From assembly GCA_965224705.1 (NCBI GenBank), contig OZ245056.1, positions 1,056,001-1,120,000 of the forward strand: a stretch of DNA of 64,000 nucleotides, in the 5' to 3' direction. The position numbers and the translations under genes are program-made. The notes under the pieces were generated by a model. The model was given only the letters and a program-made list of their open reading frames with translations. It was not told where the DNA came from and did no database searches. Positions 11,344 to 32,750 of this stretch are shown one piece after another. The DNA comes from Spirochaetaceae bacterium. Its GTDB lineage: Bacteria > Spirochaetota > Spirochaetia > DSM-2461. Position 1 is the first letter of the stretch. The number at the start of each line of letters is the position of its first letter.

Positions 11344-11412
11344 TTGTTGAACCTGGGTTAAGAGCGCAGAGTGGGTTAGAGATCTCCTTGATGCATAGAC
11401 CGATTATAATGT

Positions 11413-11823
11413 ATGGTTATCATTGTGAATGTTGAAATCAAAGGATTCGACAATCAGCTTGCTGTAACAATCCCCTACAATAAGGTGTTGATCGATTCAG
11501 TAAGGAGTGTTTCCGGGAGAATATGGGACAGCAAGAGGAAATTTTGGCTGATTCCAGGCCGTACACCAGACTCCCACCTTTCTGTCCGCTCTGCCCAGGC
11601 GGTGTTTGACAATGCCTGCGAAAAATGTGAAATAACAAAGAAGGTCTCCATCCATTCCCTGCGCCACGCCTTTGCCACTCATCTTCCTGAAGAGGGTGTT
11701 GATCTTCGCTATATCCAGGAACTTCTGGGACATGTCAGTTCAAAGACTACAGAAATCTATACTCATGTATCCAAAACAGGGGTCAGGCAAATTATCAGTC
11801 CTTTGGACAGGGCGAGGGGTTAA
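11413..11823 (+). pseudogene. Internally deleted integron-type tyrosine recombinase (mini-intI copy 1)
   Basis: N-terminal [20 protein letters not shown] is fused at WLIPG to C-terminal [11 protein letters not shown]...[17 protein letters not shown]; the central region with the first catalytic Arg is missing. Confidence 0.85.
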
Positions 11824-11859
11824 GTGTATGAAATTCGTGGAGATAAGATTTAGTTATGT
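11824..11859 (+). other. attI-like site 1 (crossover G/TT at 11853)
   Basis: GTGTATGAAATTCGTGGAGATAAGATTTAGTT is shared with the sites at 29849 and 32461, and identity ends at the GTT core where each cassette begins. Confidence 0.75.
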
Positions 11860-11930
11860 TCAATGCCCGGCTTAAGAGATTTGTAGTTCTCGGCCATCCG
11901 TGGCCTCGGGGGCAAAGGGAGATTTCTTTG

Positions 11931-12887
11931 ATGAATGATTTTTTTCAATATCCACCAGATCTATTTGATCTTATAGTACAAACTATTCCATTATTGAATC
12001 GTTCAAAGAAATCCGTTTTACTCTTTTTTAAAGGATCGGGTGTTTCAGAAAGTTTATATTCAGATATTTCAGATCAACTTTCATCTAATAAAGATTCCAT
12101 AAATAAATATGCTATCACAAGAACAATTTTAGAGCGAATCAATGAAGATTCAGACAAATATCTAAGAGAAAGAAGAGAACTACTAAAAAGAATTATAGAA
12201 TTTGAAGCATTTAGCACTTGCTGGGAAAATGACATTTTAAAAGCAAAAGGTTTGGTTTCTGAAATACAAAAGGTAGTAAATGTTAAAGATTCATTTACTC
12301 GTATGAATCAAGAAAGAGAAAAAGAACGAAAGAAAAAAACAGATGAATATTTGAAAAAAATCAATGAGATTAAAGTAAAAGAAGACAAAATAGCCAAACT
12401 TAAAGATGACTTTTTTAAATTGTTTGGAAACATAGAACCACATAAAAGAGGGAAAAAATTAGAATCAGTTTTGAATAGTCTTTTTTCGATCTATGAAATC
12501 TTAATTAAAGAAGATTTTAAACGAGTTTCAGAGAACAAAGAAGGTATTGTTGAACAACTTGATGGTGTCGTTGAAATTGACAATCAGATATTTTTAGTTG
12601 AAATGAAATGGAAAAAAGACTCAATTGGAAGCGATGATATATATGCTCATTTAGTGAGAATATATCATAGAACGAATGCTCATGGTTTTTATATTTCAGC
12701 TTCAAAATATACTCCATCTGCAATTGAAGCAGCAAAAGAAGCTCTGGTTAAGGGGACACTGCTCTGTTTTATTGATCTTGAAGAAATTGTTCAGTTACTT
12801 GAAAAAAAAGATAATTTGGTACAATTTTTTAAAGAAAAAATTCATGCAGCAATAATTGAAAAACAACCATATAAAGGGATTAAATAG
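11931..12887 (+). CDS. Mrr-like PD-(D/E)XK restriction endonuclease (gene cassette)
   Basis: C-terminal RGKKLE...EQLDGVV...LVEMKW; AT-rich; bounded by attI and attC. Confidence 0.75.
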   Translation: MNDFFQYPPDLFDLIVQTIPLLNRSKKSVLLFFKGSGVSESLYSDISDQLSSNKDSINKYAITRTILERINEDSDKYLRERRELLKRIIEFEAFSTCWENDILKAKGLVSEIQKVVNVKDSFTRMNQEREKERKKKTDEYLKKINEIKVKEDKIAKLKDDFFKLFGNIEPHKRGKKLESVLNSLFSIYEILIKEDFKRVSENKEGIVEQLDGVVEIDNQIFLVEMKWKKDSIGSDDIYAHLVRIYHRTNAHGFYISASKYTPSAIEAAKEALVKGTLLCFIDLEEIVQLLEKKDNLVQFFKEKIHAAIIEKQPYKGIK

Positions 12888-12954
12888 CAGGAATAAGAGA
12901 CTAAAAATCCGTCCATGGGTTTTTAGAAATTACAACCAAGCCGCCGGGCACTAA

Positions 12955-13039
12955 ACATAACAAGGCTTTCATGGCTCCAGCCTTCGGCTTCCGGCCCAAA
13001 TTGCCTTTGGCAACTTCATGAAAGCCTGAGACGTTAGGT
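12955..13039 (+). other. attC site (85 bp)
   Basis: R'' ACATAAC complements the cassette start GTTATGT; AGGCTTTCATG/CATGAAAGCCT inner stem; R' GTTAGGT. Confidence 0.88.
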
Positions 13040-13135
13040 ATAATACTCGACAAATTACATCTTTAGTCTTCGGCCATCCTTGGCCTCAGAAGAATAATAA
13101 TATAAAAACCATGATTGGTAGAATGAGGAAGTAAA

Positions 13136-13800
13136 GTGGCAAACAATTATTTTCAAGATGATGAACGCGAAAATGCTATGATTGAATTATTTGGTCTATA
13201 TAAGGCTGACGATGAGGGGCGTTCTGGTATAGATGCATTTCTTGAAATCGATGGTAAAAATCTACCTTTTGAACTTAAGACAACATCTACTGGGTCTGTT
13301 ACAACGGTAAGAGATTTTGGCCCCGATCATATAAAAAAATGGAAAAATAAGCACTGGTTAATTGGATCTTTTATCAGAGATCGGGAATTTTATTTGTATG
13401 GTTCACCGGAAAAAATGGCCACTTGGATTGAAGAGAAAGAGAATTATATTTCAACAGATTTCAAACTTGCTGATTTAATTCCACAAAAAATATCACTTTC
13501 AGATATGTTTGAAATTATCGGGAAAAAAGAAAAATATTCACTCGAGAATGCAAAGTCTATTCAAAAGAAGCAATATAAAATTGCAGAATATATACAAATG
13601 CAAGATATGGAAAATGGGTATTCACCAGAGAGGATGTTAAGAATTTTACAAGACCGTGCTAATTATTTAATACAGAGAGGAAGTACTCTTAATAATCTCA
13701 TATACCATATAGTTATTTCGACGGCTGGACAGAAATAACACACAATCATAAAAACAAGCTTCGAGAAATGGTTCAAGAGTATTTAAATTCAATTAATTAA
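13136..13800 (+). pseudogene. Putative type II restriction endonuclease, frameshifted near 13697
   Basis: GIDA...FELKT nuclease motif; convergent with the C5 methylase. Adding one base gives ...NNPHIPYSYFDGWTEIT...NSIN* ending at 13800. Confidence 0.65.
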
Positions 13801-14980
13801 ATGCTTTATGAACATTTTTGGCGACATTATATGCAACAGGTGGAGCAACAGAATTACCGATCTGACCTAAAACCTGATAAACAGCACCACCAAATTTCCA
13901 AGACTCAGGAAAGCCTTGTAGTAAAGCCACATCTTGTACTGATAATCTAAAATGTCCGTTTTTTGCAGGAAAAGCTGATGCTTTTTGTCTATCAGCCTGA
14001 ACACCATTGGGCCAAATTTGTAAGTCACCCCATGATTTTTGACCAGCAGTGCTATTTAAAATTGATGTTGTATTCCTCTTCCCGGTAAATGCACTTCTCA
14101 ATGTTGGGGATAAATTATCGTACTCTATATTGGGTAGACCTAATGCTTCCCTAACGCCTTTAGTCATTGGTAGCATTTCATTAAAAAAGTCTTTTGTTAA
14201 ATAATCATTATTCTTAAATCTATTCCAATTGTGTGTAGGAATTGGAATCTCGAAATTAGAGAAGTGCTTTTCATTTCTAAAACCTACAAAAAATACTCTT
14301 TTTCTTATTTGAGGAACACTAAAATCTGCTGTATGCATTTCAAACATTTTTATTTTATAATCTGATAATGGTTTTAGTATGTATTCATCAACAAACCCTT
14401 TGAATTTAGGAGAAATCAATCCCAAAACATTTTCCGCGACAAAACCATCAGGTTTGATTGTATTTACAGCTCTATTGAATTCTCCCCACATATTTCTTTC
14501 ATCATTTTTACCTTTTTGTTGTCCAGCAATTGAAAAAGGCTGACAAGGAGGACCGCCATGAATTATATTTACTTTACCTTTATATGAACCCCAATCTATT
14601 TTTGTCACATCCCCATTTTCAGGTCCACAAAATACTTTCCAATCAGGCTTATTTATATTGAAAGTTTCTCTGCAAATTGGAATTAACTCAAATGAACCTA
14701 TATGATTAAATCCTGCTTGATCAAAACCGAGATCTAATCCACCTCCACCGCTAAACAGACTTAAAGAAGTTAATGTGTTGTTTGTGATATAAGGCATTAA
14801 ATCCATAGGATTATACTGAGGAGTATTTACTTCATGCATTGGTTCTAAAAAACCTTCCATTGCTTTTTTCTTTGCAATCATAGACTCATATGATAGTTCT
14901 TTATAATACTTTCGTTTCTCATCAGTAATGTCATAATTTTTAATTGGTCGGTTTTTGTAAACAGTTGCTTTTGTAGGCAT
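13793..14980 (-). CDS. C5 cytosine DNA methyltransferase
   Basis: SLFSGGGGLDLG, GGPPCQPFS, ENV, QIRKRVF and QIGNSV motifs. Confidence 0.95.
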   Translation of the reverse strand: MPTKATVYKNRPIKNYDITDEKRKYYKELSYESMIAKKKAMEGFLEPMHEVNTPQYNPMDLMPYITNNTLTSLSLFSGGGGLDLGFDQAGFNHIGSFELIPICRETFNINKPDWKVFCGPENGDVTKIDWGSYKGKVNIIHGGPPCQPFSIAGQQKGKNDERNMWGEFNRAVNTIKPDGFVAENVLGLISPKFKGFVDEYILKPLSDYKIKMFEMHTADFSVPQIRKRVFFVGFRNEKHFSNFEIPIPTHNWNRFKNNDYLTKDFFNEMLPMTKGVREALGLPNIEYDNLSPTLRSAFTGKRNTTSILNSTAGQKSWGDLQIWPNGVQADRQKASAFPAKNGHFRLSVQDVALLQGFPESWKFGGAVYQVLGQIGNSVAPPVAYNVAKNVHKAFN

Positions 14981-14982
14981 TT

Positions 14983-15180
14983 TTACTCCTTAGAATTAGA
15001 ATCAATTTGCTTTATTGTGGGAAATAGCTCTTTTTGATCTCCATAACTAATTAGTTCGGAAGCTTCTTTTACAAACCACTCTTTCATGGTTTTTTGATTC
15101 TTCTCTAAGGCCATATATAAATTACGTTTTAATTCAGGATCAATTTCTAGTACGATTCTACCTGATTTTCCTCTTGCCAT
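14983..15180 (-). CDS. Small ribbon-helix-helix-like regulator upstream of the methylase
   Basis: MARGKSGRIVLEIDPELKRNLY; GGAG RBS; tightly linked to the methylase. Confidence 0.65.
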   Translation of the reverse strand: MARGKSGRIVLEIDPELKRNLYMALEKNQKTMKEWFVKEASELISYGDQKELFPTIKQIDSNSKE

Positions 15181-15189
15181 AAGATCTCC

Positions 15190-15232
15190 TATGTAACATA
15201 TGTAATATAACATAGAAATCCAATTCTTACAA
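15190..15232 (-). promoter_or_regulatory. Sigma70-like promoter with repeated TTACATA/TGTTA boxes
   Basis: TTGTAA-17 bp-TATATT on the minus strand, overlapped by repeats, upstream of the regulator. Confidence 0.5.
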
Positions 15233-15295
15233 GCCTTTCAGAAAAGTACATCCGTGTACTTTCCTGAGCATTATTCTAAAGCTGTCGAGTACTAC

Positions 15296-15336
15296 ACCTA
15301 ACAGCGTCTATGCGTTGCGACCTTCGGTCTTGGCCC
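15296..15336 (+). other. attC left half of the R-M cassette, cut by the intron
   Basis: TGTCGAGTACTACACCTAAC complements the cassette start GTTAGGTATAATACTCGACA at 13033. Confidence 0.8.
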
Positions 15337-17373
15337 ATCAAGTAGGAGGCACCCTGCGAAAGCAGGGATGCCGTCCTCTCACAGAACCGTGCGTACGGGT
15401 CCGTACACGGCTCCTCATGCATGTGTTCATATTTCTTTCAGTCTCAGGCTGAATAGATAAACTGCCCGAGTTCTTCAATGAAATAGCGATTGGGAAAAGC
15501 TTTGTGCATAGCCGGACTCCTTGAAGTCGCCCAGATACTCATATTGTTGATGATACGATTGGCCCCATACTCTGATACTCCCCTTTTTAACAGGGTTCGT
15601 TTCAGATTCCGGGGCCTCTTGTGCTCATACACTATTCGGGATCTCAATCGCCTTCTGGCATGGGCTTCTACCCTTTGAAGCTGGCGCTTATCTTCGGTTA
15701 TACCGTAATATCCACTCCAGCCCCGGTACCAGATATTCAGCTTTTCCACTGTAGCTTCAATAGACTGATTCGTTCGTCTGGGTATCAATTCACAAAGCCT
15801 ATCATTGGCTCTGCTCATTGACATCGACGAAATCGTAATCATTCCGGCCACAATGGTCATACCCAAAAACTTGATAACTTCGGCCTTTCCTGTTTTGCTC
15901 TTCTCCTCGTTGACAACGAGTTTCAGTTTCTTTTCAATGAAGGTTGAAATACTTCCCATCACTCTATCCGCCGCCTTTTGGGACTTAACGAATATGCTGC
16001 AGTCATCAGCAAATCGACAAAACTCCAGTCCTCGCTTTTCCAGTTCCCTGTCCAACTCGTCCAGAATCACATTGCTGAGCAATGGACTTAATGGACTACC
16101 CTGTGTCGTTCCGACAAAGGTATTTTCTTTCCGTCCATTCACCATCACCCCGCTCCGCAGAGTCAGGCCGATCAAACGCAGAATCCGGTTGTCGATCTTA
16201 TTGACCGTTCTCAGCTATCTGATGATTCTATCGTGGCTGACCCTATCAAAGAACTTCGACAGGTCGATATCCACCACAAAATCCTTACCGCTGCTGACTA
16301 TCGACTGAGCCTTTTCAATAGCCTGTTTCTGACTTCGTCCAGGACGAAAGCCAAAACTGCTGTCTGAGAAGGTGGGGTCGATAATGGGTTCGAGCAGAAA
16401 TTTGATGGATGCCTGGACCACTCTGTCACGCACACACGGCACGCCCAGAAGTCTCACTCCTCCTCCCAGTTTCGGGATCTCCACTCGTCTGACCGGCTGA
16501 GGTTTGCAGCTCCAGGCTTTCAGCTCCGCTGAGAGTTCCCGGATTTCCTGCTCAAGATTGGCTTTGTAATCCTCTACAGTGATCGCGTCGATGCCTGATG
16601 ACCCCCTGTTCTTACTCACCTCTCTAAAGCCTTGCCTCAATACCGATGGACGGCATAATTCCTCAAAAAGTCTCATGCTGTCCACTTTGAACAGTTCTCC
16701 TTGTCCCAATTTTCTCTCCTTCGGTCACAGACGAATATTTCTGCGTGTTCCACATCTCTTTTCCTTGTTTACGTCAGGAATGGGTGGAACACTCCCTAAT
16801 GGCTGGTTTCGTCTGATCTGATACTCATCGTTCCAACAGAACGTCTGCATGTTCCCCCCTTCACCTTTAACCTCCTTGTCCTTTGATTCCTGTTTTATCC
16901 TCAATATATGTTGCCATATCGTCACAGGCAGAAATCTTTACGGCTACTATGGGTTCTTCTGACTGCCGGTGGAAGATTACCCTACATCCCTGCACGGCTT
17001 AGGAAATCTTATGGCGCTGTTCCACAGTTTCCATTCCACAGGCCCTCCCCGGGTAAGACCAATCTCCATTTCATATCCCGCCTGCCTTCTGCACAATTAT
17101 GGGGTTACGTAAAGGATATGGGACTTCGATAGCCGAAGGTATCTCATCCTCCATAACTGCCTTTCAAAGGTTCACTCTCGTTCAGGCGAATATTTTGACT
17201 TAGACTTCCTTCAGATTCCTCATTGGGAAAGACAATCTCCATCTGGTCAGCAGGCATACTCTCAATGCGTTGTCTATCTTTCTTCGGACACCCTTGTCTT
17301 TGTCTACAAATTCCCTCCTTTCAGGGCTTTGTCGGGATTTTCACCCGCTGGATATTGGTCATGCCGGGCACAC
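15337..17373 (-). mobile_element. Group II intron (class C-like)
   Basis: 5' end GTGTGCCCGGCATG; short domain V GAGCCGTGTACGGACCCGTACGCACGGTTC; domain VI ending CTACTTGAT; internal RT ORF. Confidence 0.9.
15444..16709 (-). pseudogene. ltrA: Group II intron reverse transcriptase/maturase with an in-frame TAG at 16215-16217
   Basis: VRRVEIPK, RLLGVPCVRDRVVQ, DLSKFFD, GTTQGSPLSPLL and RFADD motifs. The two ORFs are in the same frame; no endonuclease domain. Confidence 0.9.
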
Positions 17374-17509
17374 TTCGCACAACACAGTATATCTGGCTCG
17401 CTCGTGCCCTCGCTCGACCCATATTTGCCAAAAACTTATTGATTTTCAGAAATATCGCCTTTACTATCAAAGGCAAATCTGTCAATCTTGAGAAAAAGGA
17501 GACAGAATT

Positions 17510-17812
17510 ATGGCAATTTCAGATGTCAAAACAGACGGTTCTTGGATTATCGTTTACGATGATTCAGGAAAAGAAAAAAAACGAATGGGTGGTAGTCGTA
17601 AAGAGGTTGTAGGTATGACAGGTGATTTTTTTGTTACACTTGAAGGTTCTTGGATAGTAACTTACGATGAAAACTGTAAAGAAATCAAAAGGATGGGTAG
17701 TTCAAATAAAGTTGTTAGAAGTGCCGTTGGTTCAACATTTACAGTGAAGGAAGGCAGTTGGATTGTCACATACGATAAAAACTGCAAAGAGCAGGCCCGA
17801 AGGGGGGCATAA
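17510..17812 (+). CDS. Small protein built of three GSWI(I/V)xYD repeats
   Basis: AAGGAG RBS; three internal repeats of about 35 aa. Confidence 0.75.
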   Translation: MAISDVKTDGSWIIVYDDSGKEKKRMGGSRKEVVGMTGDFFVTLEGSWIVTYDENCKEIKRMGSSNKVVRSAVGSTFTVKEGSWIVTYDKNCKEQARRGA

Positions 17813-17941
17813 CTTTCTTCTATAAAATTGGCTGGCGACACTTCCTATATTATCCTCATCAAGTATTTGCGTTTTTACTTTAACAGAAGCTATGATAGTG
17901 TGAGATTATCAAATGTTGTGTAATTTAGGAGTATATGATTC

Positions 17942-18649
17942 ATGAACAGGACAGAAAAATACAATGATGAGCTACTTAAAATAGAGCATTATAGTACCCA
18001 TCCTCAAATGATTCCTTTTGTTGGTAAGTATTGGGGAGATTACTGTAAGAAATTGCTTGTTTTAGGGGAAAGTCATTATTTGCCGCTAAGTAGCTCTCTT
18101 GAAATGATAAAAAATTGGTATAAAACTCCATACAAAAGTTTATCTCAGGAAGAGCAAAACTGGACTACAACGGCAAGAATAATTGATGATGAGGGTTATC
18201 CATACGAAGAAGGAGGGAAAATATATCCTGAAAAACCTCATGGTATTTATAAAAATATAGAGACTGCTATACGATCCATAAGCAGTAATGATCTGCAAGT
18301 TGAGGAGAACATGCTTCGTTATATTGCGTTTATGAATTTTTTTCAGCGTCCTTCTCAAAAAACTGGAGATAGTATAGACTGTGATTTAGAAGATAGGCAA
18401 AAAGCGAATGATACTTTAAAATCAGTTATTGCTATAATAAAACCTGACTACATCTTCTTTGTAAGTAGTAAATCTTGGGACTACTATGATAAACAATCAT
18501 TTCCAAAGAATAAGACAGGTCACAGTTGTCATCCTACCTGTCACTGGTGGAATAGAGAAAGTTATAAATATACCCGGTTCGGAGACTCACCTGTGACAGG
18601 ACGAGAATCTTTCCTCCAGTTTTTATCAACGAATGAAATTATGAAATAA
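17942..18649 (+). CDS. Uracil-DNA-glycosylase-like protein, probable cassette gene
   Basis: PFVGKY...LLVLGESHY and C-terminal CHP motifs; AGGAG RBS; followed by an attC-like half. Confidence 0.55.
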   Translation: MNRTEKYNDELLKIEHYSTHPQMIPFVGKYWGDYCKKLLVLGESHYLPLSSSLEMIKNWYKTPYKSLSQEEQNWTTTARIIDDEGYPYEEGGKIYPEKPHGIYKNIETAIRSISSNDLQVEENMLRYIAFMNFFQRPSQKTGDSIDCDLEDRQKANDTLKSVIAIIKPDYIFFVSSKSWDYYDKQSFPKNKTGHSCHPTCHWWNRESYKYTRFGDSPVTGRESFLQFLSTNEIMK

Positions 18650-18683
18650 AATAAAGGCTTTGAATCCTGAAAATAATTACTTC

Positions 18684-18750
18684 GCCTAACAGCCGATAAG
18701 TCTCCGTTCGCTACGCTCACTTCGCCCTACGGGGAAATTGCCCTTTGGGG
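18684..18750 (+). other. Truncated attC-like site
   Basis: GCCTAAC followed by CGTTCGCTACGCTCACTTCG and further hairpins; no R' found. Confidence 0.55.
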
Positions 18751-18887
18751 CTGTATCAGTAACACTCTGACAACCGAGCAGACAATGGCCCTCTCAATTG
18801 TTGTTCAAAATCCTCATTATTTTTAACATAAGCCAGAAGAATCGTTCCACTGGCAAATAACCGGCTAATACAAGCCACAAATGGGAT

Positions 18888-19108
18888 GTTGTCACACAAG
18901 TTAAGTCCACTTAGGAGGAGACAACATGCAGCGCTGCAGTGTTCAAGTTAGGAATACTATCATGCAAAAGATGATCGGCCCGGAGAAACGGAAGGCAGCT
19001 GATCTCTCAGAGGAATTCGGGGTTTCTGCAGCCACAATCTATGGGTGGAAATCAAAGCTGAAAGACGCTACCCTTTCAGTTAAGGGAAATGAATCAACCA
19101 GTCATGAG
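18888..19108 (+). mobile_element. IS3-family left-end/orfA fragment
   Basis: Homologous to 25951-26190; truncated at the start of the carB-flank repeat. Confidence 0.8.
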
Positions 19109-19139
19109 AGTCTTCCGCTTTGAATAAGTCAAGAACCTA

Positions 19140-22100
19140 TCATTGCCTGACCGGCAGGGGATTGATTTTAACCTTACCGGTCCGGAGATAACGGATGCCA
19201 TGGACAGCCGCGGCGGCGGCACTGGTTGTGGTTGTGTAGGGAATCTTCAGCGACACAGCTTCTGTTCTCATATCCTCGTCTCCAATTCGGCTGAATCGGC
19301 CGCTGGGCGTGTTGATGAGAAGCTGAATCCGGTTGGAGCGCATGTAGTCTACAACATTGGGATGACCTTCATGCACTTTCAATATAACCTCGGCAAATAT
19401 GCCATTTTCCCATAAGTACTGTGCTGTTCCACGGGTGGCACAAATGTTAAAACCAAGTTCTACCAGATCTTTCACTATGGGTAGAATACTATCCCTGTCT
19501 CTCTTGTGCACCGAGACAAATACCCGCCCCTTAATCGGAAGAATGCTGCCCACCGCAGCCTGGGATTTCGCAAAGGCTTCGCCGAAGCTTTCACCAGTGC
19601 CGATAGCTTCTCCTGTGGACATCATCTCCGGTCCCAAAACCGGGTCCAGGCCGGAAAATCGGTCAAACGAGAAAACGGCCTCTTTTATTGCCCAGCCGGT
19701 GAGGCAGTTCCCCTCACCGTAGTTCTCCTTGTTGATCAGTCCCTGCTCAGCCAGAGATTTTCCCTCCCAAACCTTGACTGCAGCGGCAATCAGGTCAACA
19801 CCCGAAACTTTGGAAAGAAATGGAATCGTGCGGGATGCCCGGGGATTCACTTCAATGACATAGAGAATACCATCCTTCACCGCGAATTGGATGTTCAGTA
19901 ATCCGACAATCTCAAACTCCCGGGCAATGCTTTGTGCGGCCTTCCGCATTGCTTCCAAAATATTCGGTGTCGATTTGTACGGCGGAAACACCGTTGCCGA
20001 ATCTCCTGAATGAATGCCCGCTGCTTCGATGTGCTGGAGAATGCCGCCGATGTAAATATTCTTTCCATCCGCAACGGAATCAAGGTCGTATTCAAAGGCA
20101 TCCTCAAGGAATTGATCCACCAGGACCGGACTTTCTGCCGTTACAGGAATATTTCCCGTAATGAATCCCTGGAGATCTTCTTCGCTGTAGGCAATCACCA
20201 TACTGCGTCCTCCCAGAACAAAGGAGGGCCGGAGCAGTACAGGGAAACCAATGTCCTGAGCCAGAGTCACCACTTCCTCCCGGCAGACAGCGATGCGGTT
20301 CTTTGGCTGCCGCAGCCCCAGCCGGATGATGGCTTCGGAGAAGAGCTGCCGGTTTTCGGTCCGGCGGATTTGCTGGACGCTGGTACCGATAATGCAGGCA
20401 CCGGTCGCCGCAAGTTCTTCTGCCATATTCAGCGATGTCTGTCCTCCTAATTGTACGGCGACATGCCGTGCCTTCTCCTTGCTGAGAACATCCAGGACAT
20501 GCTCGCTGGTGAGCGGCTCCATGTAGAGTCGATCCGATGTGTTGTAATCAGTGGAGACGGTCTCTGGATTGCTGTTGATCATCACTGTCTTTCGGCCCAT
20601 TTTTTGCCATGTCATGGATGCCAATGTGCAGCATGTATCGAATTCCAGTCCTTGCCCAATCCGATTCGGCCCCGAAGAGATAATGACGACACTGTCTTCT
20701 CCGAGAGCCTCTCCCTCGTCTTTTTCTCCCCAGGTAGAATAGAAATACGGCGTTGCCGCCTCAAACTCTCCCGCGCAGGTGTCCACTAGGTGGTAGCAGG
20801 GCATTAAGCCGTTTGTTTTGCGCAGGGATTGCAAGGCATGGACGCTTGTTCCGGTTAGTGAAGCTATGCGCTTATCCGATAGTCCCATACGCTTCGCATC
20901 CAGATAATCTCTTGTGCCGAGTTTTTTACCGGCCTTGGACAGGAATGCTTCCAAGTCCACCTGGATAAGTAATTGACTGAGAAACCAGATGTCAAAGCCG
21001 GATTTTTTGGACACAGGCAGCAGGGCCTTTTCCCCCTTCCTTTTAAGCACTGTGAATGCGGCCTGCAGTCGGCGGGGATGGGCGTTCTGGAGAATCATCT
21101 CCTCTTCATTCCGGCTGACTTTCAATTCTTCCATGCCGTCGACTCCGAACTCCGAGGCTCGTAAAGCCTTGTTGAGCGCTTCAAGGGCCGTCCGTCCCAG
21201 AGCCAGGGATTCACCAACGGATTTCATCTGACTTCCCAGCGCGCTATAAGCGGTGGGAAACTTCTCCATTTCAAATCGAGGAACTTTGACCGCGCAGTAG
21301 TCCAGTGTCGGCTCGAAGGCTAATGCGGTCTTGCCCGTGATTTCATTGAGTATCTCATCTAATGTGTAGCCTACAGCCAACTTAGCTGACCCCCGTGCAA
21401 TGGGGAATCCCGTGGCCTTGGATGCCAATGCGGACGAACGGGACACGCGGGGATTCATTTCAATGACGACCATTCTATTTGTTCCGGGTTGAACGGCGAA
21501 CTGTACATTGGAGCCGCCGCAGTCTACCCCGACCGCCCGAAGTATCCTGATGGCCGCGCTGCGCATCTTCTGATACTCACGATCCGAAAGGGTTTGGGCT
21601 GGAGCGATGGTGATGGAATCACCCGTATGAATACCCATGGGGTCAATATTTTCTATGGAACAGACGATTACCGCATTATCCATCCGATCCCGCATGACTT
21701 CGAGTTCAAACTCCTTCCAGCCTATAAGAGATTCCTCCACCAGCGCCTCGCCCGTTGGGCTTTCCCGAAGGGCTCGTTCCACCATAGATGCCAATTCTTC
21801 TTCATGATAGGCAATGGCACCGCCCATTCCGCCCAGGGTAAAACTGGGACGGATAATCAATGGAAATCCAATGTCCCGGGCCATGGCCCAGGCTGTTGAG
21901 ACATTGCGGCAAATGGCTGAGCGGGGTGATTCCAATCCCAGGGATTCGATCAGTTTCTTGAAGCTATGCCTATCCTCTGCTTTGCGGATAGACTCAACAG
22001 AGGCACCGATTATCTCAACATTGTATCGATCCAGAATCCCAAGCTCTGAGAGTTCCAGTGTGAGGTTCAATGCCGTCTGCCCTCCCATGGTAGAGAGAAC

Positions 22101-22355: not shown

Positions 22356-22360
22356 GATTA

Positions 22361-25747: not shown

Positions 25748-25946
25748 GAGATATTGTCAAATGTTGTGGATGAAAAAAGTGCGAAATCCTCCAATTTATG
25801 CAGCTTTCCCAATGAAATTTCCATCTTTACAAAAAACTCCCTGAATAACTTTCGGGATCAGCTTGTAACCCTTCATCTTCTTCCAGGTCTTCTCCGCCTC
25901 ACAACATAGCTTCCAAGCCATCGTGAGAGTCGCAATTCTACTCCCC
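25748..25946 (-). mobile_element. IS256-family 3' remnant
   Basis: Reads GSRIATLTMAWKLCCEAEKTWKKMKGYKLIPKVIQGVFCKDG; ends TCCACAACATTTGACAATATCTC. Confidence 0.65.
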
Positions 25947-25950
25947 GCGC

Positions 25951-26524
25951 TGTGCCAAAGTAGTTGTCACACAAGTTAAGTCAACGTAGGAGGTGACAAT
26001 ATGCAGCGGTACAGTGTTCAATTCAGGAATACTATCTTGAAAAAGATGATCGGCCCGGAGAAACGGAAGGCAGCTGATCTCGCAGAGGAATTCGGGGTTT
26101 CTGCCGCCACAATCTATGGGTGGAAATCAAAGCTCAAAGACGGTACCCTTTCAGTTATGGAAAATGAATCAACCAGTCATGAGAGAAGACCGTCGGAGAA
26201 GCTCATGCTTCTACTCGAGTCAAAGAATATTTGTGAAGCAGAAATGGGTGAATGGCTTCGCCGAAATGGTCTGCATTCTGAGCATCCTGGGCTATGGGAA
26301 CAAGAACTCCGGGCCCTTGTTGATCAGAAAGGTGGGGATAAGTCCCGGGAGATGAAGGAGATTCGCAAGGAACTGAAAAAGAGGGATAAAGAGCTTAACC
26401 GTAAGGACAAGGCTCTTGCAGAGATGTCGACAATCATAGCACTTCAAAAAAAAACATCTCTTCTGTTTCAGGAAGGACGAGTGACTCATCGTAGTGTGAA
26501 GAAACAGATTGTTTCTGATATAAA
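25951..26524 (+). mobile_element. IS3-family element, left end and orfA, truncated by a MITE end
   Basis: Starts TGTGCCAAAGTAGTTGTCA; HTH orfA from 26001 with an A9 slippage tract near 26450. Confidence 0.8.
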
Positions 26525-26564
26525 GGAGTCTGTCGGACTTACGCCTCACGGCTCGATTTTTGCC
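26525..26564 (-). mobile_element. MITE right-end fragment
   Basis: Reverse complement of GGCAAAAATCGAGCCGTGAGGCGTAAGTCCGACAGACTCC. Confidence 0.8.
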
Positions 26565-26706
26565 GGTTAACCAGCATCGACCGTTTACGTATAACACTCT
26601 ACCACAGCCGCTAGAATCTGCAAGATCTATGACAGAGGCGAATGTGCCCGAAGGGCCGGAGGCAATAACGCAAGTTATCGCCGGAGCGCATCAACAGCTG
26701 TTAGAT
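26565..26706 (-). other. attC site, truncated by the MITE
   Basis: GTCATTTCATCTAAC nearly complements the cassette start GTTAAATGAAATGAC; homologous to attC 27277-27480. Confidence 0.75.
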
Positions 26707-26751
26707 GAAATGACAGCCGAAGAACCGTTCCCTAAGAAATCAATTGGAGAA

Positions 26752-27210
26752 CTAGGGAATCCCCAGCTCCAACATCTTCTTATGAATACCCCCGAGAACA
26801 TTGTTTTTTCGTTGCATGGTGTTGCTTTCATCGTTCCCGGAGTAAATGTCGGATATCGAGTCTAAGTATTTCGTGGATTGTATGAGTATCTCATCAATAC
26901 TAATAATCTGCCCGACTTTAAATCCCATGCATCGCATGATCCTGGTATCGATATGATTGTTGAATTCTTCTTTCCCATTGAAGTCCACTCGGTGTTGAAT
27001 TGTGTCAACGCATTTACCGAACTTCAACATTTTGCAGTTCCTACAGATATCATCCGACTTAACGACTAGCCTGATCTTAGATACTCTATTTTCGTATATC
27101 AGATTCCCTACGTTGTGATAGGAATGCCCATATGGGTGTTCGACCAAGTCTTTTCCTATTCCGTAATCACGAATTATGTCGAAAAAGTGATGTATTCTCA
27201 GTTCAACCAT
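26752..27210 (-). CDS. DUF1284-like Cys/His protein (cassette)
   Basis: LRIHHF...YGHSY...DDICRNC pattern. Confidence 0.6.
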   Translation of the reverse strand: MVELRIHHFFDIIRDYGIGKDLVEHPYGHSYHNVGNLIYENRVSKIRLVVKSDDICRNCKMLKFGKCVDTIQHRVDFNGKEEFNNHIDTRIMRCMGFKVGQIISIDEILIQSTKYLDSISDIYSGNDESNTMQRKNNVLGGIHKKMLELGIP

Positions 27211-27276
27211 TTCACGGCCTTGTAGCATTCGTTCTTCTGAACATCTTCTAGACTTTCATAATAACATCGTCATTTC

Positions 27277-27480
27277 ATTTAACGGCCCGCTGTTATCTGA
27301 CGTTTGCCGCCCCGAAGGGCTGGCCCAGATTTTGCCAATTATCCAGTAACAACTGTTCTCTGAACAAGACTCTACCACGACGAAACCAATTCTGCAAATC
27401 TGTGACAGAGGCAAATGCGGCCGAAGGTCCGGAGGCCGACGACGAAGTTGGCGGCCGGAGCAGATCAACAGCTGTTAAAT
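27277..27480 (-). other. Long attC site (204 bp)
   Basis: R'' ATTTAAC and R' GTTAAAT; GCTGTTGATCTG/CAGATAACAGC inner stem. Confidence 0.8.
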
Positions 27481-27519
27481 GAAAAAGACGTTGTGAATGC
27501 TATTTGACTGAGCAGGGAC

Positions 27520-28425
27520 CTACAAGAGCTTTTCGACAGCAGAAATTCGATCTTCAACATAAGCCTGGTCAATCGAATCGGGGAAATCTCGAAGGCGAAG
27601 GAACAAGCGCAGGGCTCGTTCATAGTTTGCGGACGCCATCTCAGCCATCGCCAAATTATTGATTATTATGTAGTCATTTGGCTCAAGTTCATATGCTAAG
27701 GATAGATAATGTGCCGCCTGGGCATGATTGTCGATCGCGGAATAGTAGTAGGCAATGATGTTGTATCCAAAAACATTCTGTGGATAGAGTTCAATCTGCA
27801 GTTTTGAAGTTTCATACAAGGCAGAAAGGCTTTCGGGAGATGAGACTCGTAACCATGCGGAGTAGTAGTCCTGTATTACACTGAGAAAAAATTCTTGAGT
27901 ACCAGGCGTTGGTTGATTTCGAGACCATAGCCATTTATTGTTGTTTGTCAACGAATACCTCAATGCACTCTTTAGTACCAGCGATTGGTTTTCGTACTCA
28001 CCGATTTGCTGCAAGGTGTGTATTAACCCGAATCTCATGTCCAGACGATCCGGAAATTTCTTGATTCCGTTCTGGATTACGTCGATTGCAGAGTTTTTAT
28101 TTCTCTCTTCATAAGTTATGCGGTCGTACATGTAGCCGACGACCTCATCATCTCCGTCCTTTGTGAGCTCCATATAACGCCCGTCAGGAGGCGGGTACCG
28201 ATACGTTCCAGTAACGGTGTCACGACCGAGTGCCAGGTAGTAATTGAAATACCCCACATAGACTTCGGGATCATCTGGATACTTCGAAATCCATTGATCC
28301 AAATGGGCTTTCATTTCGTCGAGATTTCCATCTTTATAAAGGCTATCGAAAGTATCTTTGTTGTCTGCAAATGAAACTGATGCGATGGTTATGACAAGTA
28401 CGAATACAAGATATCTTATTCTCAT
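27520..28425 (-). CDS. Exported TPR protein (cassette)
   Basis: Signal peptide; TPR-like helices (PDRLDMRFG, NNLAMA). Confidence 0.7.
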   Translation of the reverse strand: MRIRYLVFVLVITIASVSFADNKDTFDSLYKDGNLDEMKAHLDQWISKYPDDPEVYVGYFNYYLALGRDTVTGTYRYPPPDGRYMELTKDGDDEVVGYMYDRITYEERNKNSAIDVIQNGIKKFPDRLDMRFGLIHTLQQIGEYENQSLVLKSALRYSLTNNNKWLWSRNQPTPGTQEFFLSVIQDYYSAWLRVSSPESLSALYETSKLQIELYPQNVFGYNIIAYYYSAIDNHAQAAHYLSLAYELEPNDYIIINNLAMAEMASANYERALRLFLRLRDFPDSIDQAYVEDRISAVEKLL

Positions 28426-28444
28426 TCGAAGAATTCCCTTTTTC

Positions 28445-28535
28445 ATTAAACGTTCCGACAATATGTGAAGTCTAGCACGAAGTGGTAGACTTGGCGAAGC
28501 CCGAAGCGAAGCGGAGCATATATTGTCTGTTATAG
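28445..28535 (-). other. attC site (91 bp)
   Basis: CTCCAAATACATCCTATAAC pairs with the cassette start GTTATAGGAAATATTTGGAG; GACAATAT/ATATTGTC stem. Confidence 0.85.
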
Positions 28536-28551
28536 GATGTATTTGGAGTGG

Positions 28552-28983
28552 TTAGAAGATACTTCTTTGCCAGGTCCCCTCATTTATTTTTTGATTTGAT
28601 TCACCTTTTGAAAATCCATTTTGATCAAAGTGTAACTCTATAATAGGATATTTTCCATAATAAGTGTCTTGTCCTGCTTCAAACCTTAAATAAAAATATG
28701 GAGCGTCACTAGCTGAAGCATAGGTACCATCCCATAGTAATGAAAGTGTATGGTAGTGAATTGATGAAATCCTCTTTATTATAGCATCGGGAACTGTTAT
28801 TAGTTTATGGGGTAAAGATATTAAAATAGACTGGATTTCATTCTGACTAAAGGATATTTTTATTTCCTCTCCTGTAGAGTATGAAATCGTAATATCCCTT
28901 GGATTTTCAAATCTATCCTTATGAGCACGTACAGGACTGATTATCAGAACAAAGAAAATCAAAAAATAAAGATTTCTATTCAA
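28552..28983 (-). CDS. Hypothetical exported protein (cassette)
   Basis: GGAGG RBS, signal peptide, flanked by attC sites. Confidence 0.7.
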   Translation of the reverse strand: MNRNLYFLIFFVLIISPVRAHKDRFENPRDITISYSTGEEIKISFSQNEIQSILISLPHKLITVPDAIIKRISSIHYHTLSLLWDGTYASASDAPYFYLRFEAGQDTYYGKYPIIELHFDQNGFSKGESNQKINEGTWQRSIF

Positions 28984-29007
28984 TAGAGATATCCCTCCAA
29001 ATATTTC

Positions 29008-29152
29008 CTATAACGTTTTGCCGTTATACGACGTTTTGTGTTCTTGCCAAAGGCAAGATTGGCGGAAAAATTGCGAACTGCAATTTTTGTGACAAAACAA
29101 AATGTGCCGCAGGCCAAGGGCGAAGCCCGCAGCGTATGAACGGCTGTTATGC
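29008..29152 (-). other. attC site (145 bp)
   Basis: AACGCATAAC complements the cassette start GTTATGCGTT; GCCGTTCATACG/CGTATAACGGC stem; R' GTTATAG. Confidence 0.85.
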
Positions 29153-29168
29153 GTTGTTTTTCCTTAGT

Positions 29169-29822
29169 TTAAAACACTTGATCATATTCTTCAAATATCT
29201 TGTCTATATTGAAATATATCAGCTCCCCATTAAAGGCTTCGCTTGGATGAACCTCAAAGACATCAAACATATGCCCATCATACTCTTGAAGGCTCTGCGA
29301 TACATAGTCAATATTATTCATTCCCATGAAGATATACTCTTCATTTGTAGAAATGACCGGATAGGCTGTTGATGATGTTAATCCGTCCCCTGAATGTGAT
29401 ATTGAATCGAATAATCCCCAAAATACATATCTAAAAAAATCTAATTTTTCATCTTCGGTAGCTACCAAGGCAGGTATTGCATGATAAATAAATTGCAATT
29501 CACCCAAATGATTTCTAACATTTTCTTTGATTAGCTCTACAGCAGATATGAATTCTTCCTGTTCATTCAAGGTTTTCAATTCCTTTGAAATAGCAGAACC
29601 ATAAACATTATAATATTCTGTATCCCCATACTTCATGCGCAGATCAAAAAAAGAAACTGCCTCACCAGAAAGACATTTTTCAACAAGGATACTGTAGCTT
29701 TCGTCATTTTCTGTACCTTCATCACCTGATAAGAGGGTGGGTTGCAGACTCAGCGAGAAGTACCCCAATAAGATGATTTTGAACCAAGTTAAGGAAAACA
29801 TTTTATCATTTCTCAATTTCAC
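29169..29822 (-). CDS. Exported protein, DUF4919-like (first cassette of array 2)
   Basis: AAGGAG RBS; SGDGLTSSTAYPVISTNEEY motif. Confidence 0.55.
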   Translation of the reverse strand: MKLRNDKMFSLTWFKIILLGYFSLSLQPTLLSGDEGTENDESYSILVEKCLSGEAVSFFDLRMKYGDTEYYNVYGSAISKELKTLNEQEEFISAVELIKENVRNHLGELQFIYHAIPALVATEDEKLDFFRYVFWGLFDSISHSGDGLTSSTAYPVISTNEEYIFMGMNNIDYVSQSLQEYDGHMFDVFEVHPSEAFNGELIYFNIDKIFEEYDQVF

Positions 29823-29848
29823 CGCTTTATCTCCTTGTCAAAAATAAC

Positions 29849-29884
29849 GCATAACTAAATCTTATCTCCACGAATTTCATACAC
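29849..29884 (-). other. attI-like site 2 (crossover at 29855)
   Basis: Identical to site 1 through GATTTAGTTATG, then unrelated. Confidence 0.75.
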
Positions 29885-30110
29885 TTAACCCCTTGCTCTG
29901 TCCAAAGGGCTGATAATTTGCCTGACCCCTGTTCTGGATATAGCGAAGATCCACACCCTCTTCAAGAAGATGAGTGGCAAAGGCGCGGCGCAGGGAATGA
30001 ATGGAGACATCCTTTGTTATTTTACATTTTTTGCAGGTATTGTCAAACACCGCCTGGGCAGAGTGGACAGAAAGGTGGGAGTTCGGTGTACGGCCTGGAA
30101 TCGGTCTATG
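29885..30110 (-). pseudogene. Mini-intI copy 2 (further deleted)
   Basis: PGRTPNSHLSVHSAQAVFD...[22 protein letters not shown]; extra deletions relative to copy 1, one at GATT microhomology. Confidence 0.85.
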
Positions 30111-30160
30111 CATCAAGGAGATCTCTAACCCACTCTGCGCCCTTAACCCAAGTTCAACAA

Positions 30161-30400
30161 ACTACATGCGTTCCAACCGGATTCAGCTTCTCATCAACAC
30201 GCCCAGCGACCGGTTCAGCCGAATTGGAGACGAGGATATGAGAACAGAAGCCGTATCGCTGAAGATTCCCTACACAACCACAACCAGTGCTGCCGCCGCG
30301 GCTGTCCATGGCATCCGTTATCTCCGGACCGGTAAGGTTAAAATCAATCCCCTGCCAGTCAGGCAATGATAGGTTCTTGATTTATTCAGAGTGGAAGACT
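30161..30400 (+). repeat. Third copy (inverted) of the carB 3' end
   Basis: Reverse complement of 11104-11343 and 19109-19348. Confidence 0.95.
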
Positions 30401-30632
30401 TTCATGACTGGTTGATTCATTTTCCTAACTGAAAGGGTAGCGTCTTTCAGCTTTGATTTCCACCCATAGATTGTGGCCGCAGAAACCCCGAATTCCTCTG
30501 AGAGATCAGCGGCCTTCCGTTTCTCCGGGCCGATCATCTTTTGCAAGATAGTATTCCTGAATTGAACACTGTAGCGTTGCATGTTGTCACCTCCTACGTT
30601 GACTTAACTTGTGTGACAACTACTTTGGCACA
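30401..30632 (-). mobile_element. IS3-family left-end/orfA fragment
   Basis: Same terminus as 25951 and same truncation point as 18888-19108. Confidence 0.8.
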
Positions 30633-30685
30633 GCGCGATTTGGCGAAGCCCAAGCCGAAGGCGCAGCACATAGTTGTTGTTATAT
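30633..30685 (-). other. attC left half, cut by IS3
   Basis: CATATAAC overlaps the gene stop and complements the cassette start GTTATATG at 32467. Confidence 0.75.
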
Positions 30686-30969
30686 GCCGTTTTTTTTGAA
30701 TTTATGATAAGAAAATATATTTAGTGTTATTATCATAATAATTATAGATATGGACAAAGTAATTATTATTTCTTCAATAACCCAATTATCTTTTATACTA
30801 ATGAATTTTATAAATATAAATATAGTGTAGGTAACAATTTCAATAATACCAGCTATAATGAGAATAATTCTGTTTGTATTAACCTTTAAAAAAATCCTTG
30901 CAAGAAACATTATCAATACAAATGAAAATGAAAATATCACAGGAATAAATAGAATAAGATAAAAAAAAA

Positions 30970-32274
30970 GGATCTTCCGGGTATCATGTGGAACAAGGCA
31001 TCAAATCCAGTCCTCCCAAATGGAAGAGAATGGCAGTTTTGAACCGCTCTTTATTGCGATATCCACAAGCTATTTTTTTGATTCTCTGAATACGCGCATT
31101 TTTGGCTTCCACCATGCTGTTATTCGCTTTTAAACGAATCGCATTAAGAATACCCCACAAATTCTTCTTAATAGTTTTATAAACCGCAATGATGGGCTTC
31201 AGTCTGGAATGGCTCATCCAATACAGCAGTTTTTTCCATTGTTTTTCAGCAACTCCCATATATGTATAATCCCAGAGAAGTGAAGCGGCTTCTTTAATTC
31301 GCCAGGCTCTTGCCGTCTTAAGATTCATCTTTGTCAGTGCCATAAAATCTTTCCGCCGGGAGCTTCTATTGTCGGTTTTTGAAGAACTTCTCAGCCATTG
31401 ATGTTTTGAGCGAATCAGTGTGCGGATGCCTTCATTCATTAATTGCCTATTCTCCTGTAATCGTACCCTGTCAAGGGCTTTGCCCAGATGCATTGAGACA
31501 TGAAACCTGTCGAAAGCGATTATTTCGGCTCCATTGGCGAAGTGCTTTTTCACCGCACTGATGAAAGGCTCCCACATATCCATGGAAATACTTCTTACGG
31601 TTTCTAGATCAAATATTTCTTGTTCAATAAACCACTTATTCAATGTTGATGCCTTTCTGTCATCAAGAATATCCATAACACAGTCCTTCTCTTTGTCCAG
31701 AAGGACCGTGACATATTCATGCCGTTTTTGAAACGAAGTCTCATCAATTCCCATGTCTCTCACATTGACTTTTTTTCGTCTTGCAAGCCCTCTTTTCACG
31801 GCTCTGCATTGTATGCCGTCCACCTCGTCCCAGCTCAATTCAAAACGTCTGGCTACTTTGGAAATCGATGCCTCCTCCAGCCACTCTATAATCCGGGACT
31901 CAAATTTTGCCGTGAATCGAGACCTGTCCTCAGCCCATGGAACTTTCACTTGTTTGATGCCATGTTCCGTACATTCCACTCCTGGGACTTTTGCCTCAAT
32001 CAAGGTATGGTACTCACATGAATCCAGATGTCTCCAGCGACGAATTCGAAAATCATAGCGTTTCGCTTTGATCCCGCAAACCGGACATTGAAGACCCTCT
32101 TTGCTGTTGATGCCGACTTCGACGATTACTTCTTCTGTTTCGTCTTTGCGCGTGATTGTCAGTACTTTCCAGGGGCCGTCTATCTTCAATAAATATTTGT
32201 AAAAATCTTCTACTGTTTCTTCCATGGTGACAGCTTTATACTTTTATGGATTCCACACAACAGTCTGAAGAGCC
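30970..32274 (-). mobile_element. ISL3-family insertion sequence
   Basis: Ends GGCTCTTC/GGATCTTC; 8-bp poly-A target duplication. Confidence 0.92.
30984..32225 (-). CDS. ISL3 transposase
   Basis: CPVCG zinc finger, GIDETS, SMDMW, DRFH, EAKNARIQ..K..ACGYRN. Confidence 0.95.
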   Translation of the reverse strand: MEETVEDFYKYLLKIDGPWKVLTITRKDETEEVIVEVGINSKEGLQCPVCGIKAKRYDFRIRRWRHLDSCEYHTLIEAKVPGVECTEHGIKQVKVPWAEDRSRFTAKFESRIIEWLEEASISKVARRFELSWDEVDGIQCRAVKRGLARRKKVNVRDMGIDETSFQKRHEYVTVLLDKEKDCVMDILDDRKASTLNKWFIEQEIFDLETVRSISMDMWEPFISAVKKHFANGAEIIAFDRFHVSMHLGKALDRVRLQENRQLMNEGIRTLIRSKHQWLRSSSKTDNRSSRRKDFMALTKMNLKTARAWRIKEAASLLWDYTYMGVAEKQWKKLLYWMSHSRLKPIIAVYKTIKKNLWGILNAIRLKANNSMVEAKNARIQRIKKIACGYRNKERFKTAILFHLGGLDLMPCST

Positions 32275-32460
32275 AAAAAAAATAGAGAAACCAACACCTT
32301 CAGGCGTTTCACTGAGTCCTGTCACAAAAGGATATATTGTAATTATTCCTTCCAAGAAAATATAGAATAATAACACTGTTGTTGCGATAGCCGAAATCGT
32401 TGAGATTACTATTGATAGTACTATTTTTCTATTCATATTATTCTATTCAAAAAAAATGTC

Positions 32461-32496
32461 ATATAACAAATCTTATCTCCACGAATTGCATACACT
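32461..32496 (-). other. attI-like site 3 (crossover at 32467)
   Basis: GTGTATGCAATTCGTGGAGATAAGATTTGTT, then cassette sequence. Confidence 0.7.
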
Positions 32497-32750
32497 TATC
32501 CCCCGCCCTGCCCAAAGGACTGCTGGTATGTTCCAGAAGTTCATGGATATAGTGAAGATCAACACTCTCTTCAGGAAGATGAGTGGCAAAGGCGTGCCGC
32601 AGGGAATGGATGGAGACATCCTTATATTATCTTACATCTTTCGTAGGCTTTGTCAAACACTGCCTGGACAGAGCGGACAGAAAGGTGGGAGTCCGGTGTA
32701 CGGCCTGGAGTCAGCCAAAATTTCCTCCTGCTGTCCCATATTCTCCCGGA
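32497..32750 (-). pseudogene. Mini-intI copy 3 (degenerate)
   Basis: Homologous to 11513-11823, including the same WL.PG deletion junction; 5' side fused to the lipid kinase remnant. Confidence 0.8.

Follow-up and report, generated by a model that had tools for sequence, protein, structure and literature searches.

A spirochaete genome has lost the enzyme of an integron-like gene-capture system and retains seven scattered copies of its docking site, attI, most of them followed by different captured genes. Three of the seven lie in the stretch of DNA analysed here, the window, 64,000 nt of contig OZ245056.1 from the Spirochaetaceae bacterium assembly GCA_965224705.1 (C1:1056001-1120000 of the genome designated G000, a 3.0-Mb single contig, 95% complete, 47% GC). 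Sequencing runs containing the stretch are mostly labelled mollusc metagenome. Compared genomes are designated G###, proteins of metagenomes and other assemblies P###, loci L### and sequencing runs X#; positions without a genome prefix are those of the window unless sites of G000 are being named. On balance we lean towards duplication and decay of an atypical integron platform in an era of insertion sequence (IS) activity, with service in trans until recently, rather than towards a dedicated non-autonomous element. What surprises most is the parent, an atypical system; as to the multiplication, it seems to be for the most part duplication and decay in a genome rich in IS.

A genome-wide motif scan located the seven attI-like sites of G000 on both strands, at 992368, 994911, 1067830 (copy 1) and 1750811 (copy 4) on the plus strand and at 1085878 (copy 2), 1088489 (copy 3) and 1194624 on the minus strand, so that the three platforms of a preliminary description of the window are real but fall short of the total. 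Four stand behind recombinase remnants and three behind one common decayed IS3-like fragment (84% identity over 473 nt, 992368 versus 1194624). An eighth match, at 988406 with 4 mismatches, was set aside, its flanks being without homology to the other sites. Homology between copies stops at a conserved ...GATAAGATTT(A)G|TT, toward which the recombinase remnants point, just as had been described; in the window the sites occupy 11812..11859 (+, copy 1), 29849..29896 (-, copy 2) and 32461..32508 (-, copy 3, with a few changes relative to copy 1), with crossovers at 11853|11854, 29855|29854 and 32467|32466. An attI lies beside a recombinase gene and receives insertions at G|TT, and homology ends at G|TT in five of the seven; five have a paired first cassette and the two near 992-995 kb are degenerate. 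There is no folding signal in the attI (z +1.95). A 43-nt core is identical in copies 1 and 2 and at site 1194624, the last despite a drift of 16% between its upstream lineage and its sister; tested pairwise, conservation of the core was not significant (Fisher P 0.08 and 0.20), and the trend in copy 3 was opposite, partly due to a misplaced end gap. Among 60 relatives the unit is present only in the sister species G009, which has one attI-like site and is 93% identical in the xer region, used for this comparison because carB has no match there. An exact scan of metagenome contigs for the attI pattern gave no matches.

Alignment places the three recombinase remnants of the window where they had been reported, at 11413-11823 (+), from 30102 (-) and from 32750 (-). 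That of copy 1 (11413..11823, +) is an open reading frame (ORF) of 136 aa in which HARP-like residues 1-48 are fused to the last ~88 residues of a recombinase, with the core-binding domain and catalytic R and K lost and H-x-x-R, H and Y kept. Copy 2 (29885..30102, -) is the C-terminal part only, with an internal deletion of its own and 4 nt left ahead of the junction, and copy 3 (32500..32750, -), joined to a split YegS/DAGK gene at its end, has the junction, a frameshift and a second deletion common to the fourth copy at G000:1750488. Identities among the remnants are 85-93%. The deletion junction is at the WLIP codons of 11545..11556 (+); since WLIP stands at residues 45 and 263 of the parent-like protein P0241, comparison at the protein level makes the mini ORF a 218-codon deletion between two WLIP repeats. 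Copies 1, 3 and 4 and the other-assembly proteins P0121 and P0122 have the identical junction. P0121, 95% identical to the 136-aa protein and one of a cluster of 4, is encoded on a 2.81-Mb contig of another assembly; P0122 has both a copy-1-like start, with 3 differences over its first 98 residues, and the second deletion, a combination in favour of deletion 1 having come before deletion 2. The junction reported as common to copies 1 and 3 is therefore real, but with a second deletion in copy 3, and it is not demonstrable in copy 2 with WLIP native to the parent. The Ile of WLIPG, a position that is Phe in 104 of 120 relatives, was dropped as proof of the junction in copy 2 and in the G009 copy, P0241 being natively WLIPG. 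Partial gene families are common in this genome: 163 of its 2181 long ORFs fall in 19 families with at least three partial copies, of which the recombinase remnant is one and which, judged by eye, are mostly IS, MITE (miniature inverted-repeat transposable element) or repeat proteins.

What follows the sites bears the signature of integron cassettes, whose 5' ends are complementary to the R'' end of their own attC. Scored over 18 nt as the cassette start versus the reverse complement of the R'' end, the first cassettes of copies 1, 2 and 3 pair with their own end at 16, 15 and 16 positions, in agreement with the preliminary description, and among the 57-62 AAC candidates that lie within 3.7 kb the own end ranks first each time; first cassettes at five sites reach 15-16 of 18. 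Over 11 cassettes in five arrays pairing averages 15.3/18 with the own end versus 9.1/18 with those of other cassettes, the own end being strictly best in nine, while the remaining two are a duplicated cassette tied with itself. In all 11, complementarity of the ends takes in 13-17 of 18 nt, a good deal more than the 7-nt core, so that the circular form of the cassette would have a long outer stem. Three attC bottom strands fold (z = -3.1, -5.0 and -3.0), and the attCs of G000 have the asymmetric geometry of the parent family described below, some with one extra-helical base. As the geometry scan yields ~4 chance matches per Mb per strand, no genome-wide count of attCs is claimed. GC in the cassette regions is 31-40% versus 53% for carB. 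With at least two attCs and no nearby intact intI, the arrays of copies 1, 2 and 4 and of site 1194624 are CALINs (attC clusters that have no integron integrase).

Service in trans is argued for by one cassette in particular, designated cassette X, which occupies the second position of the copy 2 array and the first position after the attI at 1194624 (G000:1194601). Its two copies have 4 mismatches in 573 nt (99.3% identity), their homology begins at the G of G|TT, and the sequence after the cassette differs between its two arrays, where the cassettes that come next show own-end pairing of 13 and 14 of 18. Taken on sequence, the duplicate is far younger than the decay of the platforms and implies recent integrase activity in trans, for a recent and precise duplication needs an integrase and no intact one is present in cis; the earlier proposal of capture through an integrase in trans would to this extent hold. 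Replicative recombination has been proposed to create such cassette duplications (Loot 2012, PMC3458562). First cassettes were compared between strains by way of run contigs at 88% likeness. The first cassettes of copy 1 are the same in a run from another study (considered further below), and loose ends with a non-T start right after GTTA were found, among those listed, in at least five contigs of X1, at least three of X3 and at least one of X4, T being what follows GTTA at the five intact sites of G000. Such ends denote further attI-cassette junctions in these populations, not assignable to loci or strains.

By its sequence the parent recombinase is not an IntI, which corrects the preliminary description: the enzyme, a ~355-aa HARP-SAM4 tyrosine recombinase, lacks the insertion that is specific to IntI, and the geometry of the attCs is atypical too, two points absent from that description. 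Full-length relatives of the remnants have 345-415 aa and the domains HARP (PF07443), SAM_4 and Phage_integrase. The IntI insertions (~31+10 aa, with the I2 helix near patch III), present in 8 IntI rows of the alignment, are absent from P0241 and 20 family rows; 65 of 80 metagenome loci have alignments across the insertion region, and three long gaps all lie before residue 80. Against TIGR02249 the family scores 173-212 bits, below the cut-off of 265 and in a match split in two; against the XerC/XerD equivalogs it scores 178-207 bits, short of cut-offs of 330-335, and against NCBIfam NF040815 recomb_XerA_Arch 205-232 bits (cut-off 220). In a quick tree, in which one row (YR2964) stands in the wrong frame, the mini protein has a placement with support 98, and this placement is the one thing taken from the tree, its root being disregarded. 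A fold search with one family member ranked VchIntIA (2A3V) and archaeal XerA first, with a predicted template-modelling score (pTM) of 0.52, a result that does not decide function. P0241 itself, one match among 31 candidates in a search with residues 5-76 of the mini protein, has 292 aa and comes from a 17.7-kb contig of another assembly; 45 of its 48 N-terminal residues are identical to those of the mini protein, and, with no insertion, it has retained both the core-binding domain and the catalytic R and K. Its tail matches two shifted frames of copy 1, which points to a full-length gene with two frameshifts, whether real or due to sequencing error.

Of the 15 genome regions that were fetched, 9 have a gene of this family at the head of a same-strand attC array, as do 18 of the 33 metagenome loci that extend at least 1.5 kb downstream. 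There are 42 same-strand hairpins in 133 kb downstream, against 7 on one strand and 1 on the other in 112 kb upstream; 23 are present downstream on the opposite strand, partly the same palindromes, and a few matches overlap. The usual family attC consists of AAC, 1 nt, a ~11-bp stem, 4-5 nt and GTT, with a one-sided 4-nt bulge; the spacers differ by 3-4 nt in 31 of 42 matches and a single-base bulge is found in 3 of 42. The spacers of canonical attCs are roughly balanced. Another genome of the same phylum, G274, has three intact int-attI copies that are 99.7-99.8% identical (L082, L083, L078), and the two with DNA past the attI have different first cassettes, although strain mixing may play a part, as the assembly consists of 7 contigs with 1% contamination. 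Each of these copies stands behind the same broken-looking type I methyltransferase fragment.

Where, then, is the helper? In G000 no intact recombinase of the parent family was found, and so no autonomous partner for the units, nor was there a TIGR02249 match or other IntI trace, or a match to the middle of P0241, the part missing in the mini ORF; the genome search proposed earlier thus produced further attI copies and no full-length parent. Viral contigs contained no relatives of P0241 and a plasmid search returned one distant match (37%). Separate XerC- and XerD-like genes are present in G000, together with an extra XerC-like recombinase (G000:2963708-2964787, a 359-aa frame) outside the array-heading family, of which a duplicated C-terminal fragment lies beside an IS at G000:1643281-1643460. 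Of 38 family genomes 24 exceed the TIGR02249 cut-off, frequently with no array nearby, and G012 has three matches. Widespread in the family is an IntI of ~405 aa that is extended at its N-terminus (L106 and L108-L112, in G029, G021, G015, G022, G005 and G458), and the attC scan found no adjacent array at these loci; in G009 a canonical intI cut at its C-terminus (L107, C1:720829-721455) stands at the end of a block syntenic to G000:1349362.

The upstream sides of the units are of a different character from the attI end, which is the only end in common: 5' homology breaks off at a different place in every lineage, in a junction that is either an IS end or uneven microhomology. The units share neither ends nor terminal repeats, and a mobile 'mini-integron', as they had been called, is therefore not shown. 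The integron mobilization unit and other MITE-flanked defective integrons are likewise non-autonomous, combining a truncated integrase, attI and cassettes moved by other elements, and have paired terminal repeats and class 1 parts; the G000 units differ in lacking detectable common ends. Copy 1 is preceded by a duplicate of the carB 3' end (11102..11343, +, the gene sense being on the reverse strand), which it shares with copy 2 and which is joined by a 5-nt GTAGT microhomology to segment X (11344..11412, +), found only ahead of copies 1 and 2 and probably the parent's native upstream DNA. The source of this block is the native carB 3' end with an IS3-family left end at 18888..19348 (+), 8005 nt from the piece at copy 1, and recurrence at that spacing is the pattern expected from tandem duplication. 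Upstream of copy 2 (30099..30637, -) there is an IS3 left end, set in the attC of cassette 3.1, followed by the carB 3' copy and segment X. Ten copies of the IS3 left end are present in G000, three of them inside attC left arms and two of these just upstream of a second attI. The three insertions in left arms, at window 30637, G000:870976 and G000:994184, may reflect a preference of the element for hairpins. Multi-copy IS-like ORFs are abundant in G000. Immediately upstream of copy 1 (9635-11028) are a cassette-like 216-aa gene, a truncated attC and a Phd/YefM-type antitoxin pair; in one contig of run X8 different DNA is joined before segment X at window 11339, probably the native upstream context in another strain.

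The captured genes are varied. Array 1 begins with cassette 1.1 (11854..13033, +), a nuclease gene with an Mrr_cat domain, whose bulge-free attC (12955-13039) has a 1-nt spacer, an 11-bp stem and a 5-nt spacer. Cassette 1.2 (13034..15345, +) contains a 200-aa ORF opposed to a C5 methyltransferase, probably a type II restriction-modification pair, and the left arm of its attC is split by a broken group II intron (15337..17372, -) with a frameshifted reverse transcriptase/maturase. The intron sits away from the attC R'' core, its target motif recurs at G000:1242800, and 97% copies are present at G000:331774 and 1652438. Further decayed cassettes follow (17510..18770, +), with a truncated attC left arm near 18684. 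Array 2 runs from cassette 2.1, a DUF4919-like gene (29015..29854, -; attC 29152-29008, with one extra-helical base), through 2.2, which is cassette X with a 143-aa ORF (28452..29013, -; attC 28535-28445), to 2.3, a TPR protein, and 2.4, with a weak DUF1284 match below cut-off (26570..28450, -, for the two), and terminates at a MITE and an IS3 fragment. Cassette 3.1 (30638..32466, -), its attC cut by IS3, is interrupted by an ISL3 element (30984-32225, -) 99.7% identical to a copy at G000:2938698, an identity indicating recent movement. Of 13 cassette proteins put to PADLOC only the methyltransferase gave a good match. Elsewhere in G000 there are attC sites or halves with no attI ahead (G000:870145, 870924, 582305, 1319271, 1242919 and 976266), and one attI-less array, headed by an IS256-like element, contains a two-gene cassette. 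Apart from the arrays, the window has a 9-repeat CRISPR array beside cas5, a weak cas8/Csd1 match, cas7 and cas3 (13-587 and 1239-7238).

How might this state have been reached? The ancestor would have been a reverse-oriented platform with a ~355-aa recombinase (HARP-like N-domain, SAM4 core-binding domain and a catalytic domain without I2), an attI just past the stop codon and cassettes with asymmetric attC hairpins, features seen in intact relatives and presumed to have been active. Residues 49-266 were lost by deletion between the two WLIP-coding repeats, as the protein-level comparison shows. The 3' end of the gene with attI would have reached its seven sites through duplications, either local and in tandem or associated with IS, and further deletions trimmed the platforms; the junctions are visible and their order is surmised. 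After multiplication an integrase in trans presumably inserted and excised cassettes precisely at G|TT, which would account for the different first cassettes. Complementation in trans is familiar from intI2*, which IntI1 complements. The helper was most likely a then-intact parent copy like P0241, now lost or outside the assembly, and replicative excision and re-insertion by it could have given the duplicate of cassette X. It is possible, though we have our doubts, that selection has kept the attI copies as a dispersed docking network, served in trans by a HARP-bearing, I2-less integrase acting on a hitherto undescribed, bulge-free class of attC.

Did the platforms multiply before or after inactivation of the enzyme? 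Amplification of an already dead unit, as first proposed, is the simpler order because copies 1, 3 and 4, P0121 and P0122 share a junction, and it accords with the changes from majority codons counted within G000, of which 37 are non-synonymous against 14 synonymous (omega, the ratio of non-synonymous to synonymous rates, 0.82; P = 0.31 against neutrality), which amount to divergence without constraint; given the WLIP repeat it is not proven. The other order, with intact platforms multiplying first, being loaded in cis or from a sister copy and decaying separately through use of the same WLIP-WLIP hotspot at least twice, we consider unlikely, despite several points in its favour that equally weigh against duplication and decay of a dead unit. 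With WLIP at both deletion ends in the parent the junction could arise repeatedly, and independent deletions are plausible as far as the sequence goes; copy 2 may be without the junction; neutral decay would be expected of redundant intact copies as well; and G274 exemplifies multiplication of intact platforms. The G009 copy, a 5'-truncated piece of the recombinase gene, decayed on its own after purifying selection, the branch to it having 9 non-synonymous and 15 synonymous changes (omega 0.20, P = 1e-4; in the xerC control pN is 0.025 and pS 0.18). What keeps separate decay from preference is the common junction, the order of the two deletions suggested by P0122, the lack of a purifying signal among the four G000 copies, and cassette X, which still requires activity in trans after most of the decay. 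Further points tell against the preferred account as a whole. The 95%-complete assembly reveals no helper integrase, P0241 is itself frameshifted after residue 267 and is known here as protein sequence only, and the homology of cassette X continues 9 nt past the attC crossover in both arrays, for which gene conversion is an alternative, although a third cassette begins with the same 8 nt. The matching first cassettes of copy 1 in the run from another study (4 differences over 11876-13300) mean no fast turnover there.

Perhaps it was not the cassettes that came to attI, but attI that moved to cassettes, by attI x attC exchange that an integrase carried out on sites far apart or by insertion of attI-bearing circles into arrays already present, with IS deletions upstream afterwards; this would create a new attI|cassette junction and duplicate the platform in one step. 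The two tandem pairs ~2.6 kb apart (from copy 3 to copy 2, and from G000:992368 to 994911), each with array, half attC, IS3 end and attI in that order, are in keeping with it, as is the cassette-like DNA ahead of copy 1, and own-end pairing, being true of any array cassette, cannot separate such movement from capture. We nevertheless think it quite unlikely, as none of the units has a complete attC immediately upstream, what joins them to the upstream DNA is microhomology or an IS end, and the DNA after cassette X differs between the two arrays. It is highly unlikely that the helper was a canonical IntI passing through the lineage in place of the I2-less parent: such genes abound in the family genomes (the 24 of 38 mentioned above, with a truncated one in G009 and three in G012) and several G000 attCs have one extra-helical base, but G000 has no IntI trace, the attI belongs to an I2-less gene and attI sites are usually cognate-specific, and the unequal spacers of 31 of 42 family attC matches are not those of a canonical attC. 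Scarcely credible is a 136-aa protein selected as a regulator, for instance a HARP-bearing dominant-negative subunit, of a dedicated non-autonomous system. Its frame stays open both here and in P0121, and with 4 changes copy 1 has fewer than the other copies, which have 10-18, but 3 of those 4 are non-synonymous, family-conserved positions are altered (P34S and L92P in copy 1, L16R and P34S in P0121), the two proteins differ at 7 residues, some of the differences being radical, there is no core-binding domain, and a promoter scan for the mini ORF gave one weak promoter-like match, at chance level. Four RNA runs contain small shares only; contigs of RNA runs cover the repeat, and contigs cannot show expression. 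The regulatory role floated in the preliminary description gets no support, and the protein is probably a decaying by-product. Duplication and decay of an atypical platform, served in trans, thus remains the account to which we incline.

Of known systems the reverse-oriented chromosomal integrons of Treponema, as described in the available part of Wu, Doak and Ye (2013, PMC3607928), are closest in layout, with an integrase directed toward attI and AAC...GTT attC hairpins, and T. phagedenis, which by the same account lost its integrase and retained attCs, resembles G000. The integrons set out there have an IntI, one attI each and attCs with a protruding G, whereas the G000 platform has a HARP-like domain, no IntI insertion, asymmetric attC spacers and an attI seven times over. 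CALIN and In0 elements, as presented in the consulted portion of Cury (2016, PMC4889954), also have arrays without an intact integrase, a proposed service in trans and IS-driven splitting; that portion reports intI pseudogenes near 15 of 279 CALINs and 50 of 18,808 non-IntI recombinases near attCs, those without intI_Cterm being judged not IntI. It defines CALINs by attCs only, while here a recognisable attI is repeated ahead of arrays. A dead integrase before attI and cassettes is shared with class 2 integrons bearing truncated intI2* (from an excerpt of PMC8876359) and with the integrons of Xanthomonas, in which deleted or truncated intI is common; the latter, in the accessible text of bioRxiv 10.1101/2025.06.18.660453, have a canonical IntI, reside mostly at one locus (ilvD), are divergent and are not multiplied after decay. 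The 'integron-like' subgroup of tyrosine recombinases (Smyshlyaev 2021, PMC8138268) has an insertion 'not fully conserved', a likeness, and the available extract of that source gives no cassette arrays or HARP domain for insertion-less members. In what could be seen of the respective sources, archaeal IntIs have the insertion domain, with attI downstream of intI (Ghaly 2022), and the insertion is regarded as indispensable to an integron integrase and as its defining trait (PMC4889954; PMC7790495). A literature search, mostly outside subscription journals, found no report of a multiplied attI behind a dead integrase or of arrays run by HARP-bearing, I2-less recombinases. By analogy the system would work like a reverse-oriented integron turned into CALINs, but without an IntI.

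Detection tools rely on the IntI insertion, and here a near-identical parent without it is tied to attI, bounded cassettes and a recent duplicate. The repetition reveals the sequence of the attI site, which is normally unknown. The system also offers a limited number of substrates for testing, namely an attI that occurs seven times and some ten attCs. Were the dispersed docking network real, cassettes would be shuffled without a domain held to be essential, and one helper would feed many first-position slots; if the sites are maintained, many cassettes would be kept in first position with one resident integrase or none. If they are not, G000 would offer a clean record of how an integron platform fragments during IS expansion in a host-associated bacterium.

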